A stretch of 64,000 nucleotides of DNA from Gemmatimonadaceae bacterium (GTDB lineage Bacteria > Gemmatimonadota > Gemmatimonadetes > Gemmatimonadales > Gemmatimonadaceae): assembly GCA_051859245.1 (NCBI GenBank), contig JBHYGA010000001.1:896001-960000 (forward strand). The letters run 5' to 3'. Positions 5,664 through 10,648 of the stretch are shown piece after piece (the first letter of the stretch is position 1; every line of letters begins with the position of its first letter). Made by a program: the position numbers and the translations under genes. The notes beneath the pieces were generated by a model that searched no databases, was not told the origin of the DNA, and worked only from the letters and a program-made list of their open reading frames with translations.

Positions 5664-5670
5664 TTTGTTC

Positions 5671-6747
5671 ATGAACTCAACGCAGGCACCGGCGCGCCGA
5701 ACGCCGACTGACAACGCTGTCATTGAAGATCTGTTCTCGGTGCCGCGCGCTCGCGCAAAGGCGATTCGTGAACTCGAGCCGTTGCTGCGACCGGGAATCA
5801 CGGTGGCGCTGTCGACGCATCTCAATGCGGACGGCGACGGATGCGGTTCGGAAGCGGCACTGGCGCGGCTGTTGATGCAGCGCGGCATGAACGTGCGCAT
5901 CGTGAATCCCACGCCCTGGCCCACGTTGTTCAACTTTTTGTTGGGCAATGATGTTGAAGACGCGTCGCCTCGCGGCGCTGAGGCGCTGGAAGGCATCGAT
6001 CTGCTGTTGGTGCTGGATATCAACGATGTGCGCCGCCTTGGTGTGCTGGCCGACGCCGTTCGCGGGCTCACCGTGCCGATTGGCGTGATTGATCATCATG
6101 TCGCGGGTGACGAACCGGTTGGCCAGGTCACGTACGCGGATACCACCGCCTGTGCGACCGGCGAGCTGGTGTTTGATCTGGCGCGCGAGCTTGGGCTGGC
6201 GATCACGCCGGCGATTGCGGAGTCGCTGTACTGCGCCATTCTCACCGACACCGGTGGCTTTCGTTTCAGCAACACATCACCGCGCTGCCATGCCGTTGCG
6301 GCGGCGTTGCTGTCTGCGGGCGTGGCGCCGGAGTCGATGTACCGACTCATTTATGCGCAGGTCAAGCCGGCGCGACTGCACCTGCTTCGCGAAGCGCTGA
6401 GCACGCTGCAACTTGATCCGGAAATCGGGTTGAGCTGGATTACGCTCACGTACGATGTGGTGCACCGGCTCGGTGCGACCACCGATGACGTGGATGGTCT
6501 GGTTGAGCATCCACGATCGGTGGCCGGCACACGTCTGGCGCTGATGTTCCGCGATCTGGGGCACGGCAAGGTGAAGGTGTCGTTTCGCAGTACGGGGAAC
6601 ATCGACGCGCAGTTGTTGGCCAGACAGTTCGGCGGCGGCGGACATGTCAAGGCGTCGGGCGCACTGCTCGCCGGAACACTCGCCGAAACGGAAGCCAACG
6701 TGATTGCCGCCGCACGGGAATATCTCGCGAGTATTCCGCGAGCGTAA
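5671..6747 (+). CDS. nrnA: DHH-family oligoribonuclease/pAp phosphatase
   Basis: HLNADGD, IDHH, TDTGGF, SFRS and GGGGH motifs. Confidence 0.9.
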   Translation: MNSTQAPARRTPTDNAVIEDLFSVPRARAKAIRELEPLLRPGITVALSTHLNADGDGCGSEAALARLLMQRGMNVRIVNPTPWPTLFNFLLGNDVEDASPRGAEALEGIDLLLVLDINDVRRLGVLADAVRGLTVPIGVIDHHVAGDEPVGQVTYADTTACATGELVFDLARELGLAITPAIAESLYCAILTDTGGFRFSNTSPRCHAVAAALLSAGVAPESMYRLIYAQVKPARLHLLREALSTLQLDPEIGLSWITLTYDVVHRLGATTDDVDGLVEHPRSVAGTRLALMFRDLGHGKVKVSFRSTGNIDAQLLARQFGGGGHVKASGALLAGTLAETEANVIAAAREYLASIPRA

Positions 6748-6751
6748 CGCG

Positions 6752-7117
6752 CTACATCTCCTCCATGTCGCCCGGCGACTTGAAGTAGTTCTTGTACAGC
6801 GTCTTGGTGGTCTCGGTTTCGCACCCGTACCACGGGATCACGCCCACATACGGAAACGCTGGCAAGTAGTATCCTTTCCAGCTCCAGCCACAATCCGAGT
6901 ACGTGGTTTCTTCGCCGCAGACTTCAATCAAGCCAGCGCCGCACGGCGAGTAGTACATTTTGGTTTCGGATTGCGCGACCAGTTGCGACGCGAACGCACC
7001 TGTTGCCAGCAACGCCGCGAGCCCGATCAGCAACCGAGTATGCGCGCCCTTCGCTCGGCCTGCTGCGTTGGGTGACTGCCGGCGTGCTTTGGCGAGACGG
7101 GATGTTGTGGTAAGCAT
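6752..7117 (-). CDS. Secreted Cys-scaffold miniprotein, paralogue 2
   Basis: GAGG SD upstream of ATG and a hydrophobic signal segment (LLIGLAALLATGAFASQLVA). The mature part has 4 Cys and is clearly similar to 8900..9292. Confidence 0.8.
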   Translation of the reverse strand: MLTTTSRLAKARRQSPNAAGRAKGAHTRLLIGLAALLATGAFASQLVAQSETKMYYSPCGAGLIEVCGEETTYSDCGWSWKGYYLPAFPYVGVIPWYGCETETTKTLYKNYFKSPGDMEEM

Positions 7118-7162
7118 CATGACCTCACGAGAGAAAGAGTATAGGACGTATGCGAACATCGC

Positions 7163-8296
7163 TCAGCGCGACACGCTGTCGTTCGCGGTGATGCGGCGCC
7201 ACGCAACCAACTGCGGGGCAACCATGCTGTTGCGCATGGTGTAGAGCGTTCCGTTCGCGTACACCGCGTATTCGAGATCACGGTGTGGTGCTGGCCATGA
7301 CACGCGGTATCGTCCGAAGCGATCGAACAGGTCGAGTATCGGTTTGTCCGGGCCAGGTGCACCGCGAAACGTGATGAGCACGGTGTCATTCCAGGTGGAC
7401 CCTCGAGTGGCCGCCGACGTGCCACTCTCCATTTCGGTCCGCACCACTGGTTTTCCGTCTACCTGGCGCGATTGCGTGGTAAACGTTGGTGTCTCCAGCG
7501 CTTCGGCGTATGGCTGCAGTGTGAGTGCGCGAGCGTCGGCCGTGACGCCGCCGATGCCGTAACCGAACATGGTGAACACCGTACACGCATCACTGGCCTC
7601 GCCACGCGCAAACGCGGCGCTGGTGACCATGCTCGGCGCGGACGCGGGGAGTTCCACGGGAAACGCGAAGCGCGCGAGTGGTGAGGACTCACGACTGCGC
7701 GTGAGCCAGGCGCCGTTTCGTTGTGTTACGCCAACCAGTGAGCCGTCACGGAGCGCACAGATTGACGAGGCGTGCTGCTGCGGTCCGGGCTGCTGGTTCG
7801 CCAGCAAAGAACCACTCGGGGCAATCGTGGAAACGCGACCCAGTTGCACATCGAGTGCGAGGATGTTGCCCGCCGAGTCCATGGTGATATCGTTGATCTC
7901 CTGGAACTCACCGGGGCCAGCGCCTTTTCTGCCCACCGACCATCGCGTTTCTCCCGAACTGCGATCAAACGCGTGGATCTGCAGTGTCCCCTCATCCACG
8001 ATCACGACTCCATCCCGGTACGGAAGTGCGATTGGCACAACGGCGAACAACGCTTCTTCGCGCTTGCCACCGCGTGTCCACACCACCTGCCAGCCGGTGC
8101 TGTCGATCACGCGCTGTGATGGTGCTTGCCCGTTGAGCGAGGCCTGAATCAGCGCGTCACCTGGTGCGAGCGATGCGTCGGCAGGTGCGTCCGTTGCGGA
8201 GGAATTTTTCGCCGTTGTATCCGAACCTGCACAGCCAAACGCGGCGAACAGTGTGAGCAGCGCCAACGTGATCGAAGGGACACGATGCAGGCTCAT
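7163..8296 (-). CDS. 6-bladed beta-propeller lipoprotein (DUF5128/NHL-like)
   Basis: Lipobox LFAAFGC and VGRKGAGPGEFQEINDI (GxxGxGPGEF). ATGA overlap with the upstream gene. Confidence 0.8.
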   Translation of the reverse strand: MSLHRVPSITLALLTLFAAFGCAGSDTTAKNSSATDAPADASLAPGDALIQASLNGQAPSQRVIDSTGWQVVWTRGGKREEALFAVVPIALPYRDGVVIVDEGTLQIHAFDRSSGETRWSVGRKGAGPGEFQEINDITMDSAGNILALDVQLGRVSTIAPSGSLLANQQPGPQQHASSICALRDGSLVGVTQRNGAWLTRSRESSPLARFAFPVELPASAPSMVTSAAFARGEASDACTVFTMFGYGIGGVTADARALTLQPYAEALETPTFTTQSRQVDGKPVVRTEMESGTSAATRGSTWNDTVLITFRGAPGPDKPILDLFDRFGRYRVSWPAPHRDLEYAVYANGTLYTMRNSMVAPQLVAWRRITANDSVSR

Positions 8297-8916
8297 GGCA
8301 CGGGGGGATTGGGGTTGTTGGTGACGAGTCGGGCAATGGCGGCGAGTTGTACGGTGCGTTCCACCGGACCTGGCGGAGAGGCGCCAGCATATCGAAGTCG
8401 GTGCTCCCCATCGAACAGCATGAGCGTTGGCGTGCTGCGATGACCGAGTGCGACCATGGTGCCGCGTTGCGCCGACGACAGTACGGCGAGTGTTGCATGT
8501 TGCAGGCTGCGCGGCAGTCGGTCGCGAAGCCCCACCGTGTCTGCAGCCAGGCCCTCCACCAGCAGCACGCGATGTGGCACGTGTGACGAGATCGACGGTC
8601 GCTCAAACAGCGCGAACACTCCGAGGTTGCCATCGCAGTCTTTGGCCTGCGCCACGATCACCGCCGTAAACGCGCGCGTTGAGTCTGCAGGTTGTACGGC
8701 GTCGAGCAATGTTGCCCCGGCCCCGCGACGCACCGTTGTAAAGCGCGCCGACATCAGCGTCGCCGAAAACATGGCCGCAATGAGCATGAGCAGCAGCGTG
8801 CCGATGCCGTCACCGATAGCGGAGTAGCGAGCCGCGTTACGCCGCATCGCCGAGGCCAAGGAACCGGGCGTCTTGCGACGCCCGTCCTCATGTGATGGGT
8901 CAGCACTCCGAGGCAT
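8293..8916 (-). CDS. Membrane-anchored thioredoxin/peroxiredoxin-like protein with a single Cys
   Basis: TM segment, then beta strand plus AKDCDGN at the CxxC position, and STPTLMLFDGEHRLRYAG (cis-Pro motif). Fold assignment is inferred. Confidence 0.55.
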   Translation of the reverse strand: MPRSADPSHEDGRRKTPGSLASAMRRNAARYSAIGDGIGTLLLMLIAAMFSATLMSARFTTVRRGAGATLLDAVQPADSTRAFTAVIVAQAKDCDGNLGVFALFERPSISSHVPHRVLLVEGLAADTVGLRDRLPRSLQHATLAVLSSAQRGTMVALGHRSTPTLMLFDGEHRLRYAGASPPGPVERTVQLAAIARLVTNNPNPPVP

Positions 8917-9292
8917 ACTCTTCGTCGAGTCCGTCGCTCATATCCGTGCGACCCGGATTGGTCGCGTCTTTCGGCGCCCACTGGAAGCACACGCCAAGCT
9001 CCGTGCTGTTCTTGTCGTAGTTCTTGTACAGATTCTTGGTGGTGGTGCCCGTGCAGCTTTCACCCTCGTACTTGAATCCGAACACGCGGGCAATGATGCC
9101 AAGATCGATGCCCCACTTGTCGCTGCAGTTAGTGCCGGTGGTTTCGGAACCGCAGACTTCGAGCACGCCGTTGCCGCAGGTGGTGTAGATGATTTCGGGG
9201 CCGATTTCGTACGCACGCGCCGTGTTGGCGGCCATGGTGACAGCAAGAACAAGGGTGGCGGCGAGACCGCCGAACCAGGTGAGTCGGGTCAT
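8900..9292 (-). CDS. Secreted Cys-scaffold miniprotein, paralogue 1
   Basis: AGAGGA SD and Sec signal peptide ending ARA. Six Cys in the mature part, motif shared with 6752..7117. Confidence 0.85.
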   Translation of the reverse strand: MTRLTWFGGLAATLVLAVTMAANTARAYEIGPEIIYTTCGNGVLEVCGSETTGTNCSDKWGIDLGIIARVFGFKYEGESCTGTTTKNLYKNYDKNSTELGVCFQWAPKDATNPGRTDMSDGLDEEYASEC

Positions 9293-9511
9293 GGAAGGGT
9301 CCTCTCAGGTGCTGCGAGGTAGTGAGCAGCGGCGGGAATCGTTCGCTGCGTCCAACGGGCCGCCCGGTCGGCCTGTTTGACTCGCGCAGTATGCGTGCGG
9401 TCTGTCATCCGCATGTCACCAAAACACCGCGCGTGTTATCACCAGCCCGCCGCCGCGCTGCGACTCACCGAGCTGCTTGGAGCTCCCGTCCGCGGGGACT
9501 AACTTTCGCGA

Positions 9512-10648
9512 ATGACTCAGACTCTTCAGGAACGCATTGCGACCGCCCTTCGGGGCGTGGCGCACCCGCGCAGCGGGACCGACGTGCTCTCCGCCGACGC
9601 CGTTCGCGATATTGGCACCACGACCGATGGCAAGGTCCGCCTGACCGTGCTCCTCGCGGCCGATGACGACGCCGAACTCGTGCGCGAAGTGCGCGACGCC
9701 GTGCAAAGCGTGAGCGGCGTGAGCGACGTACGTGTCGACGTGAAAGACCCGGCCCAGTTTGCCAAGTCACCGCCGCCGGAGCCAGCGCGTCCGGCCTCGC
9801 GATCGTTGCCGGTGATGGATGCCGCACCGGCCGCGCCGCGGAACGTGGCGCCGCCGCCGCAGGTGGCCTACCCGCAGCTCGGGCGAATCATTGCGGTGTC
9901 ATCGGGTAAGGGAGGCGTGGGCAAATCCACCATGGCCGTGAATCTTGCCATCGCGCTCGCGCAGCGCGGTGCACGGGTCGGCATTATGGACGCCGATGTG
10001 TACGGCCCCAATCTCCCACTCATGCTCGGCGTTGATCACGCGCCCGCTGTGCGTGACGAGAAAATCATTCCGCTCGAAGCACATGGCATCAAAGTGATGT
10101 CGATCGGTTTTCTCATCGAAAAAGAGCAGCCGGCGATCTGGCGCGGTCCCATCGTCATGAAAATCATCACGCAATTCCTGCGCGATGTCGCGTGGGGACA
10201 ACTCGACTATTTCCTGGTCGACATGCCACCTGGCACGGGAGACGCGCAGTTGTCGCTCGTGCAAGCGACGTCAGTGCACGGCGCAGTCATCGTCACTACG
10301 CCACAGCAAGTCGCGGTGGGTGACGCGTTGCGTGGTGTGAAAATGTTTGAGCGCACATCGGTACCGGTGCTTGGCATCATCGAAAACATGTCGTGGTTCG
10401 AAAACCCCGAAACGGGCAAGCCGATCGCGTTGTTCGGAACGGGCGGCGGGCAGCGTCTTGCCACCGAGACGGATCTTCCACTGCTCGGGCAAGTGCCGGT
10501 TGATCCGCGCATTCAGGAGGGCGGCGACACCGGACGGCCAATCATTGTGGCCGAGCCCGATTCGAAAGCGGCGCGTGCGATTCGATCGATCGCTGAAGCC
10601 GTCGTCTCGCGCATGGATGCGCGGTGGGGCGCGGTTGCAGGTGCGTAG
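9512..10648 (+). CDS. mrp: Mrp/NBP35 (ApbC) Fe-S cluster carrier ATPase
   Basis: SGKGGVGKST, DADVYGP, WRGP, DMPPGTGD and ENMS motifs, plus an N-terminal DUF59-like domain. Confidence 0.95.
   Translation: MTQTLQERIATALRGVAHPRSGTDVLSADAVRDIGTTTDGKVRLTVLLAADDDAELVREVRDAVQSVSGVSDVRVDVKDPAQFAKSPPPEPARPASRSLPVMDAAPAAPRNVAPPPQVAYPQLGRIIAVSSGKGGVGKSTMAVNLAIALAQRGARVGIMDADVYGPNLPLMLGVDHAPAVRDEKIIPLEAHGIKVMSIGFLIEKEQPAIWRGPIVMKIITQFLRDVAWGQLDYFLVDMPPGTGDAQLSLVQATSVHGAVIVTTPQQVAVGDALRGVKMFERTSVPVLGIIENMSWFENPETGKPIALFGTGGGQRLATETDLPLLGQVPVDPRIQEGGDTGRPIIVAEPDSKAARAIRSIAEAVVSRMDARWGAVAGA

Follow-up and report, generated by a model that had tools for sequence, protein, structure and literature searches.

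A conserved cassette encoding small exported cysteine proteins, a thioredoxin-like protein with one active-site cysteine and an NHL-repeat propeller at the nrnA-mrp site of a Gemmatimonadaceae bacterium

Results

Organization of the cassette between nrnA and mrp

A four-gene cassette was analysed in the genome of a Gemmatimonadaceae bacterium (assembly GCA_051859245.1). It lies at positions 6752-9292 of a stretch of 64,000 nucleotides (nt) of contig JBHYGA010000001.1 (forward strand, 896,001 to 960,000), which is hereafter called the window, and it encodes two small exported cysteine proteins (the miniproteins PepA and PepB), a thioredoxin-like protein and an NHL-repeat propeller lipoprotein. 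The cassette is a real, conserved and undescribed envelope module in which known folds occur in a new combination. It is not unique to this genome, but is one member of a class-wide module. The data support directly that its three gene types form one functional unit in the cell envelope. The genes overlap tightly, are strictly co-inherited and have diverged together across the class.

The four genes are co-oriented and tightly packed, and they stand antisense between nrnA and mrp (Table 1); the overlaps of the open reading frames (ORFs) and the families of the flanking genes agree with the layout given in the original prediction. The first ATG of the thioredoxin-like gene is located inside the 3' end of pepA (17-nt overlap), the stop codon of the thioredoxin-like gene and the start codon of the propeller gene share the sequence ATGA (4-nt overlap), and a gap of 40-45 nt separates the propeller stop from the start of pepB. 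The pepB and nrnA genes are convergent, with stop codons 4 nt apart. The ATG of pepA is preceded at 7 nt by GAGAGGA. For pepB, the most likely start codon is an ATG, at 7117 or 7120, that follows GAGG, as judged from the spacing of this GAGG and the end-to-end alignment of the orthologue P0009, of 121 amino acids (aa). An IMP dehydrogenase gene is found upstream, and an S-adenosylmethionine (SAM) hydroxide adenosyltransferase gene downstream, of the cassette and its nrnA/mrp flanks.

Table 1. Features of the cassette and its flanks, in window positions.
Feature	Position	Strand	Description	Basis
pepA	8900..9292	-	130-aa exported miniprotein, 6 Cys	ORF
Thioredoxin-like	8293..8916	-	207 aa from first ATG; alternative start 8847	ORF
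Propeller lipoprotein	7163..8296	-	377 aa, NHL-repeat	ORF
pepB	6752..7120	-	121-122 aa, 4-Cys pepA paralog; ORF spans 6752-7159	
Intergenic pepA/mrp	9293..9511	.	Divergent, 219 nt; presumed cassette promoter region	
DHH+DHHA1 (NrnA-like, nrnA)	5665-6747	+	Flanks cassette on pepB side	
Mrp/ParA-NUBPL+FeS_assembly_P (Mrp/ApbC, mrp)	9512-10648	+	Flanks cassette on pepA side	

As had been proposed, all four products appear to be exported or membrane-anchored. The N-terminal hydrophobic segment of PepA ends in ARA/YE and the putative signal segment of PepB in GAFA/SQ, the propeller has an apparent lipobox (LFAAFGC/AGSD), and the thioredoxin-like protein starts with a probable membrane helix; the features of PepA, PepB and the propeller were read directly from the sequence and not by a signal-peptide predictor. 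The original prediction also stated that the locus has no enzyme for ribosomally synthesized and post-translationally modified peptides (RiPPs) and no ATP-binding cassette (ABC) exporter, and indeed neither a RiPP-type modification enzyme nor an ABC gene was found in the cassette or its flanks by ORF inspection and family searches.

The intergenic region between pepA and mrp probably carries the promoter of the cassette. A promoter scan of the cassette region gave no sigma-70-type consensus, a terminator scan gave one weak terminator-like site, within nrnA, and Rfam gave nothing at gathering score anywhere in window positions 1-64000. None of the four proteins matched a PADLOC defence model. 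The cassette is not a chance cluster of ORFs, because the peptide family and the gene order recur in independent genomes and the ratio of nonsynonymous to synonymous substitution rates (dN/dS) of the three gene types is 0.13-0.20 in the one close pair of genomes available.

The miniproteins PepA and PepB

The mature part of PepA comprises about 102 aa with six cysteines (C39, C47, C56, C80, C102 and C130), the last of which is the final residue and closes an acidic tail. PepB does not have the tail with Cys5 and Cys6 and contains four cysteines. The two proteins are identical at 27 of 68 positions (40%; BLASTP E 3e-12), and the motif that had been claimed as common to both is present in each. 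P0009, from another assembly, shares 69% identity with PepB across 121/121 residues, and P0001, the one close relative obtained in a word-index search, shows 91% identity. A hidden Markov model (HMM) of the mature parts retrieved 37 proteins at E ≤1e-3, 16 of them at ≤1e-10, from 1.84 billion cluster representatives. The miniprotein family is thus real but rare.

The family was described on an alignment of 32 members (A3), from which the long multi-domain proteins P0028 and P0037, the 74-aa fragment P0021 and the proteins with extended N-termini (P0008, P0017 and P0032) were excluded; the window's PepB is also outside A3 and is represented by P0009. The members have a signal peptide, often ending in A-Q, followed by T-x-C-G-x-G-x4-C-G, Cys3 after a further 7 or 8 residues, an amphipathic hairpin that includes G-F, the element Cys4-x3-G-x3-(L/I)-Y-K-(D/N), and G-x-Cys5 with an acidic low-complexity tail ending in Cys6. 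Exactly six cysteines occur in 28 of the 32 members; in 15 of these proteins the sixth Cys ends the chain, and in the other 13 it lies 1-4 residues before the C-terminus. Three members have four cysteines, as in PepB, without Cys5 and Cys6, and one has five, so that the number is even in 31/32. Since Cys5 and Cys6 are present together or absent together, they probably form a disulfide, and the predicted disulfide map of PepA is C39-C47, C56-C80 and C102-C130.

The AlphaFold2 model of PepA built on A3 has an overall predicted local distance difference test score (pLDDT) of 69.5 and suggests a long β-hairpin (45-65/70-90; core pLDDT 81-90) with a disordered tail. Judging from residue numbers rather than coordinates, C56 and C80 would be opposed across the modelled hairpin, and C39 and C47 would close a small N-terminal loop. 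The hairpin sequence alternates hydrophobic and polar residues and has aromatics at the base.

That the peptide motif could not be assigned to a family was borne out. At E up to 1, Pfam gave no family for either PepA or PepB, the 32 members had no consistent match in Pfam or NCBIfam, and the peptide profile matched no PDB sequence. Against the PDB, Foldseek returned nothing at E below 5 for the PepA model, and the best hit of a VIA search of 48,161 chains had a Z of 2.3. The ESM Atlas gave for the peptide only sub-0.9 leads to small outer-membrane β-barrel fragments, which are unusable as evidence. The suggested analogy with NVEALA-type peptides found no support in the sequences: PepA, PepB and the 32 members are without a consistent Pfam match, NVEALA included, and the NVEALA profile matched none of the 32 members at E up to 0.1.

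The thioredoxin-like protein

The AlphaFold2 model of the thioredoxin-like protein (13 sequences, pLDDT 82) indicates an N-terminal transmembrane (TM) helix at residues 5-40, preceded by only a short cytoplasmic stub, and a thioredoxin fold. The best Foldseek match was CcmG (1kng, E 3.6e-5), and further matches were CcmG 1z5y_E (in complex with nDsbD), ResA, DsbE, DsbF and DipZ-C; the E-values of this set ranged from 3.6e-5 to 1e-3, all with probability 1.00, and the template modelling score against CcmG was 0.56-0.58 by target length. On this model, the protein is predicted to have a thioredoxin fold with a TlpA-type insertion, resembling CcmG and ResA. Its neighbours in the ESM Atlas carry DUF6436, AhpC-TSA and Redoxin annotations, which is a language-model lead only. 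In each of the 20 database clusters found, the family has no name or is called 'hypothetical'; one cluster is labelled Gemmatimonadaceae.

The active site has a single Cys in D-C-D-G-N and no CxxC. D70, C71 and P140 do not vary among 13 aligned orthologues (numbering of the product of window positions 8293-8847), and the second active-site Cys is absent in all 13, in which the motif reads DCDGN, DCNGN, DCSGN, DCESH, DCAGQ, DCTGN or similar. An N-terminal Arg is also invariant, probably as an alignment effect. C71 stands 4 residues past β-1, the position of the first Cys of a CxxC. In the model, P140, in T-P-(T/A)-L-L, comes directly before strand 141-145 (β-3), where a putative cis-Pro would be placed. 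Selection maintains the nucleophile Cys together with its surroundings, and none of the 13 aligned orthologues has the resolving Cys.

These results qualify two of the earlier descriptions. The name 'thioredoxin-like' is upheld by the fold, although the protein has one active-site Cys and no CxxC. The term 'redox folding helper' needs qualifying, since the resolving Cys is missing. In the biochemistry of protein disulfide isomerases and thioredoxins, the first Cys alone supports isomerization and mixed-disulfide formation.

The propeller

The claim of a β-propeller was confirmed by NHL matches and by a DUF5128 score above the gathering cut-off (28.6 vs 22.9 bits). With the single sequence, phmmer found the NHL domain of TRIM3 (E 2e-10) and also those of Thin, TRIM2 and TRIM71. 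A profile of 14 orthologues reached the NHL domains of TRIM71, TRIM3, TRIM2, Thin, Mei-P26 and Brat at E 6.4e-31 to 7e-8, with TRIM71 matched best and over 4-5 stretches, and peptidylglycine-amidating lyase at E 5e-4. By these sequence matches, the gene product is an NHL-repeat propeller. Most orthologues in genus g51 (see below) appear to have a plain signal peptide instead of the lipobox. Six residues, C180, G245, E265, D322, G328 and Y330, do not vary among the 14 sequences, most of which also have a second Cys near 236.

Eighteen further propeller matches at E ≤0.01 are found elsewhere in the genome (e.g. C4:556590-557855, C4:578432-579790 and C8:64584-65792), mostly as 350-490-aa ORFs with N-termini that resemble lipoprotein signals. 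The HMM of the thioredoxin-like protein and those of the peptides hit only the cassette locus in this genome, and none of the 18 paralogs adjoins such genes. Small Cys partners near the paralogs were dismissed as candidates, as the scan of small Cys ORFs gave noise only.

Distribution and gene order in relatives

With pepA as the query, 4 of 201 genomes of the family were positive, the window's included, and none of four genomes of the window's own genus. With profile A3, 11 of 401 phylum-spread genomes were positive, namely that of the window and 10 of the 16 that represent genus g51. All ten g51 loci have the order mrp / peptide, thioredoxin-like, propeller / nrnA, at the same site as the window; a pepB-type gene behind the propeller occurs in none of them. 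In the four other genomes of the window's genus the site is empty (4/4), with nrnA 18-74 nt from mrp and nothing between, and it is also empty in the g51 genome G050.

The thioredoxin-like query was positive in 8 of 200 family genomes. Among the seven loci other than that of G184, the thioredoxin-like gene is followed by the propeller gene in six, and one is cut by a contig end; one or two small exported Cys proteins are encoded upstream in all seven, with the shorter pattern C-x6/7-C-x7/8-C, hairpin, C, T-T-x-x-Y-Y. A single 620-aa ORF in genome G104 (L024:979-2841), between nrnA and mrp, contains the thioredoxin-like part and then the propeller. Both a genuine fusion and an assembly error are conceivable, as this is a single case in an 89%-complete genome. 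It was found separately from a dedicated search for longer or fused thioredoxin-like forms, which returned none and is itself weak evidence. A very short exported peptide with only two Cys precedes this ORF.

Profile A4 of the thioredoxin-like protein extended the distribution to 18 of 401 phylum genomes and to three other families of the class (f2, 1/166; f4, 2/7; f7, 3/70). The propeller abuts the thioredoxin-like gene in 6 of the 7 loci outside g51 (six of the seven in other families and one in genus g40 of the window's family), and small Cys ORFs stand beside these six pairs, upstream in four and downstream of the propeller in two. The downstream small Cys protein, seen in two genomes of another family (L072:3023-3403 and L075:2979-3254), is of a different type, with many Cys and a common C-terminal K-C-C-(T/I)-E-V-P-E-(D/E)-P.

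Longer versions were observed in two genera. In g33 (locus L046:4604-13170 of genome G032), the triad with two peptide genes is part of a longer same-strand gene run. Genes for a GAF-containing HisKA_3 kinase and for a NarL-type regulator stand in front of the triad; a HisKA_3 kinase and a NarL-type regulator are encoded there in 3/3 g33 loci as far as these extend. Behind the triad, the run continues with genes for an ABC ATPase, for an ABC-2 permease that has DUF3526, and for an NPCBM_assoc (NEW3) protein in which a TM segment is C-terminal. The propeller gene of g40 is likewise followed by an ABC ATPase gene. The ABC-2 transporters of g33 and g40 are of the immunity/efflux type, not of the peptidase-ABC type. 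No regulator, kinase or sigma factor adjoins the cassette of the window or any of the g51 cassettes. The number of peptide gene copies per locus varies from 1 to 2.

The peptide homologues co-occur with the thioredoxin-like and propeller genes in 10/10 g51 loci, and in more distant versions, so that the refuting condition of a missing co-occurrence did not apply. The original interpretation is supported in part. Its proposal of an undescribed extracytoplasmic peptide system stands: the unit is conserved and co-inherited, it has no curated family, and a literature search whose scope did not include bioRxiv supplements found no paper describing it.

A sequence TTCA(C/T)-N1-3-ATAGAT was observed just before the ribosome-binding site in 7 of 11 upstream regions compared (g51 loci L015:7560-7619, L050, L051, L053, L056, L057 and L058), at a distance of about 10-35 nt from the start codon of the peptide gene. 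It is absent upstream of the window's pepA and may be a promoter or operator element.

Evolution of the cassette

Within g51, Mrp is 75-96% identical, whereas the peptide, thioredoxin-like and propeller proteins are 22-57% identical in 27 of 28 pairs. For G184 and G403, for example, Mrp identity is 90% vs 44/37/42% for peptide, thioredoxin-like and propeller proteins. The closest pair, G109 and G410, is alike throughout (Mrp 96% vs 87/81/78%) and was the only close pair available for dN/dS, which was 0.06 for mrp, 0.05 for nrnA, 0.15 for the peptide gene, 0.20 for the thioredoxin-like gene and 0.13 for the propeller gene. The cassette genes are coding genes under constraint, relaxed about 2-4-fold by comparison with their neighbours, and the cassette is an accessory, fast-diverging unit on which purifying selection still acts.

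The propeller tree, which covers all 14 rows of alignment A5, contains two deep clades within g51, and the window copy falls inside one of them, as (G514,(window,(G184,G403))) with support 99/97. The peptide subtype tracks the same split, with a C2-C3 spacing of 8 and a terminal Cys on one side vs a spacing of 7 and the last Cys 1-4 residues from the end on the other. The Mrp of the window is 88-90% identical to that of its own genus and 76-79% to that of g51. Since the window's Mrp is own-genus-like, its propeller nests in a g51 clade and the sites are empty in its own genus, the data fit a history in which a g51-type cassette was gained when the conserved flanks recombined. They would fit a long-standing presence/absence polymorphism at nrnA-mrp as well.

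Discussion

Possible function of the cassette

The reading that we favour, tentatively and at somewhat less than an even chance, is that a complex of the thioredoxin-like protein and the propeller acts on the miniprotein cysteines via its single Cys. The membrane-anchored one-Cys thioredoxin-like protein and the NHL propeller would form this complex on the periplasmic face of the inner membrane, as a possible split-gene counterpart of the thioredoxin-like/NHL pair of NHLRC2 and SOQ1. The small β-hairpin proteins encoded with it, which would be disulfide-bonded, would bind to this complex and have their cysteines handled by thiol-disulfide exchange, either in isomerase-like or in mixed-disulfide 'holding' chemistry, with the miniproteins as product or client rather than as subunit. 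The physical contact, the direction of the chemistry, the periplasmic residence of the miniproteins and their role as clients are what we infer here. Thiol exchange is favoured because the genes are coupled in an operon (the 17-nt and 4-nt overlaps, with pepB 40-45 nt behind), because the Cys partners are co-encoded (miniproteins with fixed Cys spacing and a propeller with the invariant C180), because the catalytic geometry of the D-C pair and the Pro loop is kept without the resolving Cys in 13/13 orthologues, and because the genes co-occur across loci and are apparently joined in one fused ORF. In a diderm cell, a protein with no more than a Sec signal reaches the periplasm and not the outside of the cell. 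With Sec-only export the miniproteins should stay periplasmic, which constrains the readings in which they are secreted.

Several points weigh against thiol exchange. Because the sequence support is weak, the thioredoxin assignment depends on one AlphaFold2 model of 13 sequences and on the language-model lead: Pfam Thioredoxin_2 scores 15.3 bits on the window's protein, below the cut-off of 27, and matches 1 of the 13 orthologues (E 0.021), and the profile found nothing at E below 0.46 among PDB sequences. Without a CxxC, the protein cannot run a classical oxidase or reductase cycle alone, and no partner of the DsbB or DsbD type is encoded nearby among the ORFs of the cassette and flanks. The miniprotein model has no known-fold match and, in particular, matched neither the immunoglobulin (Ig)-like nDsbD nor the C-terminal domain (CTD) of SOQ1 in the Foldseek and VIA searches. 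The accessible text of PMC6107167 reports no activity of the NHLRC2 thioredoxin-like domain in an insulin reduction assay, so that the analogy with NHLRC2 is no guarantee of redox chemistry. A dedicated folding helper does not by itself explain an accessory, divergent locus, nor does it explain the ABC-2 transporters and the two-component system of other genera. The pattern of variation points to recognition or conflict rather than housekeeping, and conflict, recognition or sensing better fits both the accessory, divergent locus and the ABC-2 and two-component additions.

The rival readings and the favoured one are not mutually exclusive. PepA and PepB may be toxic or membrane-active β-hairpins of a polymorphic effector and immunity system, directed against competitors or used for kin discrimination, with the propeller and the thioredoxin-like protein as the producer's periplasmic immunity and maturation pair; we regard this as unlikely. 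It would account for a locus that is accessory (absent in 4/4 own-genus relatives and in G050), hypervariable by comparison with Mrp, segregating as two deep types in one genus with the window copy nested in one of them, and variable in peptide gene copy number. The g33 and g40 operons run into an ABC ATPase, and that of g33 also includes the ABC-2 permease, the HisKA_3 kinase and the NarL-type regulator; a combination of ABC and kinase/regulator genes is typical of peptide-antibiotic immunity and sensing. The alternating hairpin with aromatics at its base would suit such an effector, but an amphipathic hairpin is expected of any small two-layer β protein. Likewise, the only fold neighbours are pore-state hairpins of β-pore-forming toxins, but these matches are non-significant and at chance level (E above 5, Z ≤2.3). 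Moreover, no export route beyond Sec is encoded, so that the miniproteins should not leave the periplasm; no bacteriocin, toxin or immunity family was matched in Pfam, NCBIfam or PADLOC; and dN/dS is well below 1 in the one close pair, with no gene-wide sign of positive selection. A bolder form of the same idea, which we consider decidedly improbable, makes the miniproteins a new class of polymorphic Sec-exported disulfide-stapled β-hairpin effectors of diderm bacteria, which would enter membranes or attack neighbouring cells in some other way and which the thioredoxin-like protein and the propeller mature while protecting the producer, and makes nrnA-mrp an allelic 'recognition locus' exchanged between genera.

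The genes in front of the g33 peptide genes suggest instead an envelope signalling accessory, in which the miniprotein is a ligand and the propeller and the thioredoxin-like protein are a periplasmic sensing pair that feeds a regulator, the window version being a stand-alone form without its own output domain. The kinase and regulator genes stand directly in front of the peptide genes in 3/3 g33 loci, but no such gene or sigma factor adjoins the cassettes of the window and of g51, the thioredoxin-like protein has only a short stub on the cytoplasmic side of its helix, and the strict conservation of the Cys and the cis-Pro argues for chemistry and not only binding; the odds for signalling are rather poor. 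The Cys chemistry could also be that of a SOQ1-like redox enzyme in three pieces, in which the miniprotein is a redox-active subunit, the counterpart of the C-terminal β domain of SOQ1 and NHLRC2, and the complex repairs or modifies other envelope proteins, e.g. by methionine sulfoxide reduction. The parts are of the same kinds (thioredoxin-like, NHL propeller and a small β-rich Cys-bearing part), and in SOQ1 the thioredoxin-like domain reduces the CTD, which has methionine sulfoxide reductase activity, according to the accessible part of 10.1101/2024.11.01.621559. However, the miniprotein model, which is a hairpin only, matched no Ig-like CTD or nDsbD structure, no NHLRC2 or SOQ1 chain was retrieved from PDB sequences (E up to 1 with the propeller and up to 10 with the thioredoxin-like protein), the CC(I/V)NC motif and an electron source are absent, and a repair enzyme is not expected to be accessory and hypervariable. 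We hold the SOQ1-like enzyme to be very improbable.

Three further candidates were rejected. A methylamine-dehydrogenase-like system (small Cys-rich subunit, propeller and MauD thioredoxin) and an arylsulfotransferase with DsbL/DsbI have no counterpart among the Pfam and NCBIfam families of the four proteins, and the former would have included a MauG-type gene, of which none was found. A RiPP or class II bacteriocin locus was dismissed on the Sec-type-looking N-termini and on the lack of a modification enzyme or peptidase-ABC exporter in the cassette and flanks.

The pairing of an NHL propeller with a thioredoxin fold of the TlpA-like kind has been conserved from bacteria to humans, and human NHLRC2 is essential, disease-linked and, in the accessible text of PMC6107167, described as of unknown function. 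Among such pairs a client has been proposed only for plant SOQ1. The cassette offers a short, tractable candidate client or partner for the pair in its small Cys proteins, and its one-Cys active site is a natural experiment on the role of the first cysteine alone. In a phylum of soil and water that has been studied little, it is also an accessory, fast-diverging islet that occupies a fixed housekeeping site and is apparently horizontally mobile, and loci with an accessory, fast-diverging pattern usually serve recognition or conflict.

Comparison with known systems

In Bacteroidales, DUF5128 six-bladed propeller lipoproteins neighbour NVEALA small proteins. To our knowledge, a thioredoxin-fold gene is not part of that neighbourhood. 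The cassette resembles these loci in that its propeller passes the DUF5128 gathering score and a small exported protein is encoded beside a propeller lipoprotein, and it differs in that PepA, PepB and the 32 family members are without an NVEALA match. With the periplasmic proteins TlpA, CcmG, ResA and DsbE, the thioredoxin-like protein appears to share the N-terminal helix anchor, the fold and the conserved putative cis-Pro loop. In contrast to them, it has no resolving Cys in 13/13 sequences, the residue before the Cys is Asp where Trp is usual, its Pfam score does not reach the cut-off, and the gene is always paired with propeller and miniprotein genes and not with genes for cytochrome c or copper-protein maturation.

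The closest known systems are NHLRC2 (animals and some bacteria) and SOQ1 (plant thylakoid lumen), in which a TlpA/DipZ-like thioredoxin domain, a six-bladed NHL propeller and a small C-terminal β domain are combined. As far as the accessible texts go, the active-site motif, CCINC in NHLRC2 (PMC6107167), is located in the cleft between the thioredoxin-like domain and the propeller (PMC6107167; 10.1101/2021.03.16.435614), DipZ-C is the nearest structural relative of the NHLRC2 thioredoxin domain (PMC6107167), and the SOQ1 thioredoxin-like domain passes electrons to a small β-stranded domain with a Cys pair (10.1101/2024.11.01.621559). Unlike these proteins, the cassette consists of three separate gene types, with the thioredoxin-like and propeller genes separate in the window and in all g51 loci; its active site is D-C-x-x-x with one Cys vs the CC(I/V)NC given in the accessible part of PMC6107167; its propeller has no Ig-like CTD, the third part being a separate Sec-exported hairpin protein with 4 or 6 Cys; and, as noted above, neither protein was retrieved in the PDB sequence searches. 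The cassette is also accessory and hypervariable, whereas NHLRC2 is described, in what is accessible of its literature, as highly conserved. Like NHLRC2 and SOQ1, the cassette combines an NHL propeller with a predicted TlpA/CcmG/DipZ-type fold, both placed on the non-cytoplasmic side of a membrane, and, as in SOQ1 according to the accessible text of PMC6107167, the TM anchor comes just before the thioredoxin-like domain. Both known systems and the cassette have a small, Cys-bearing third part, which is predicted to be β-rich in the cassette, and in one relative of the cassette (L024) the thioredoxin-like protein and the propeller are apparently fused.

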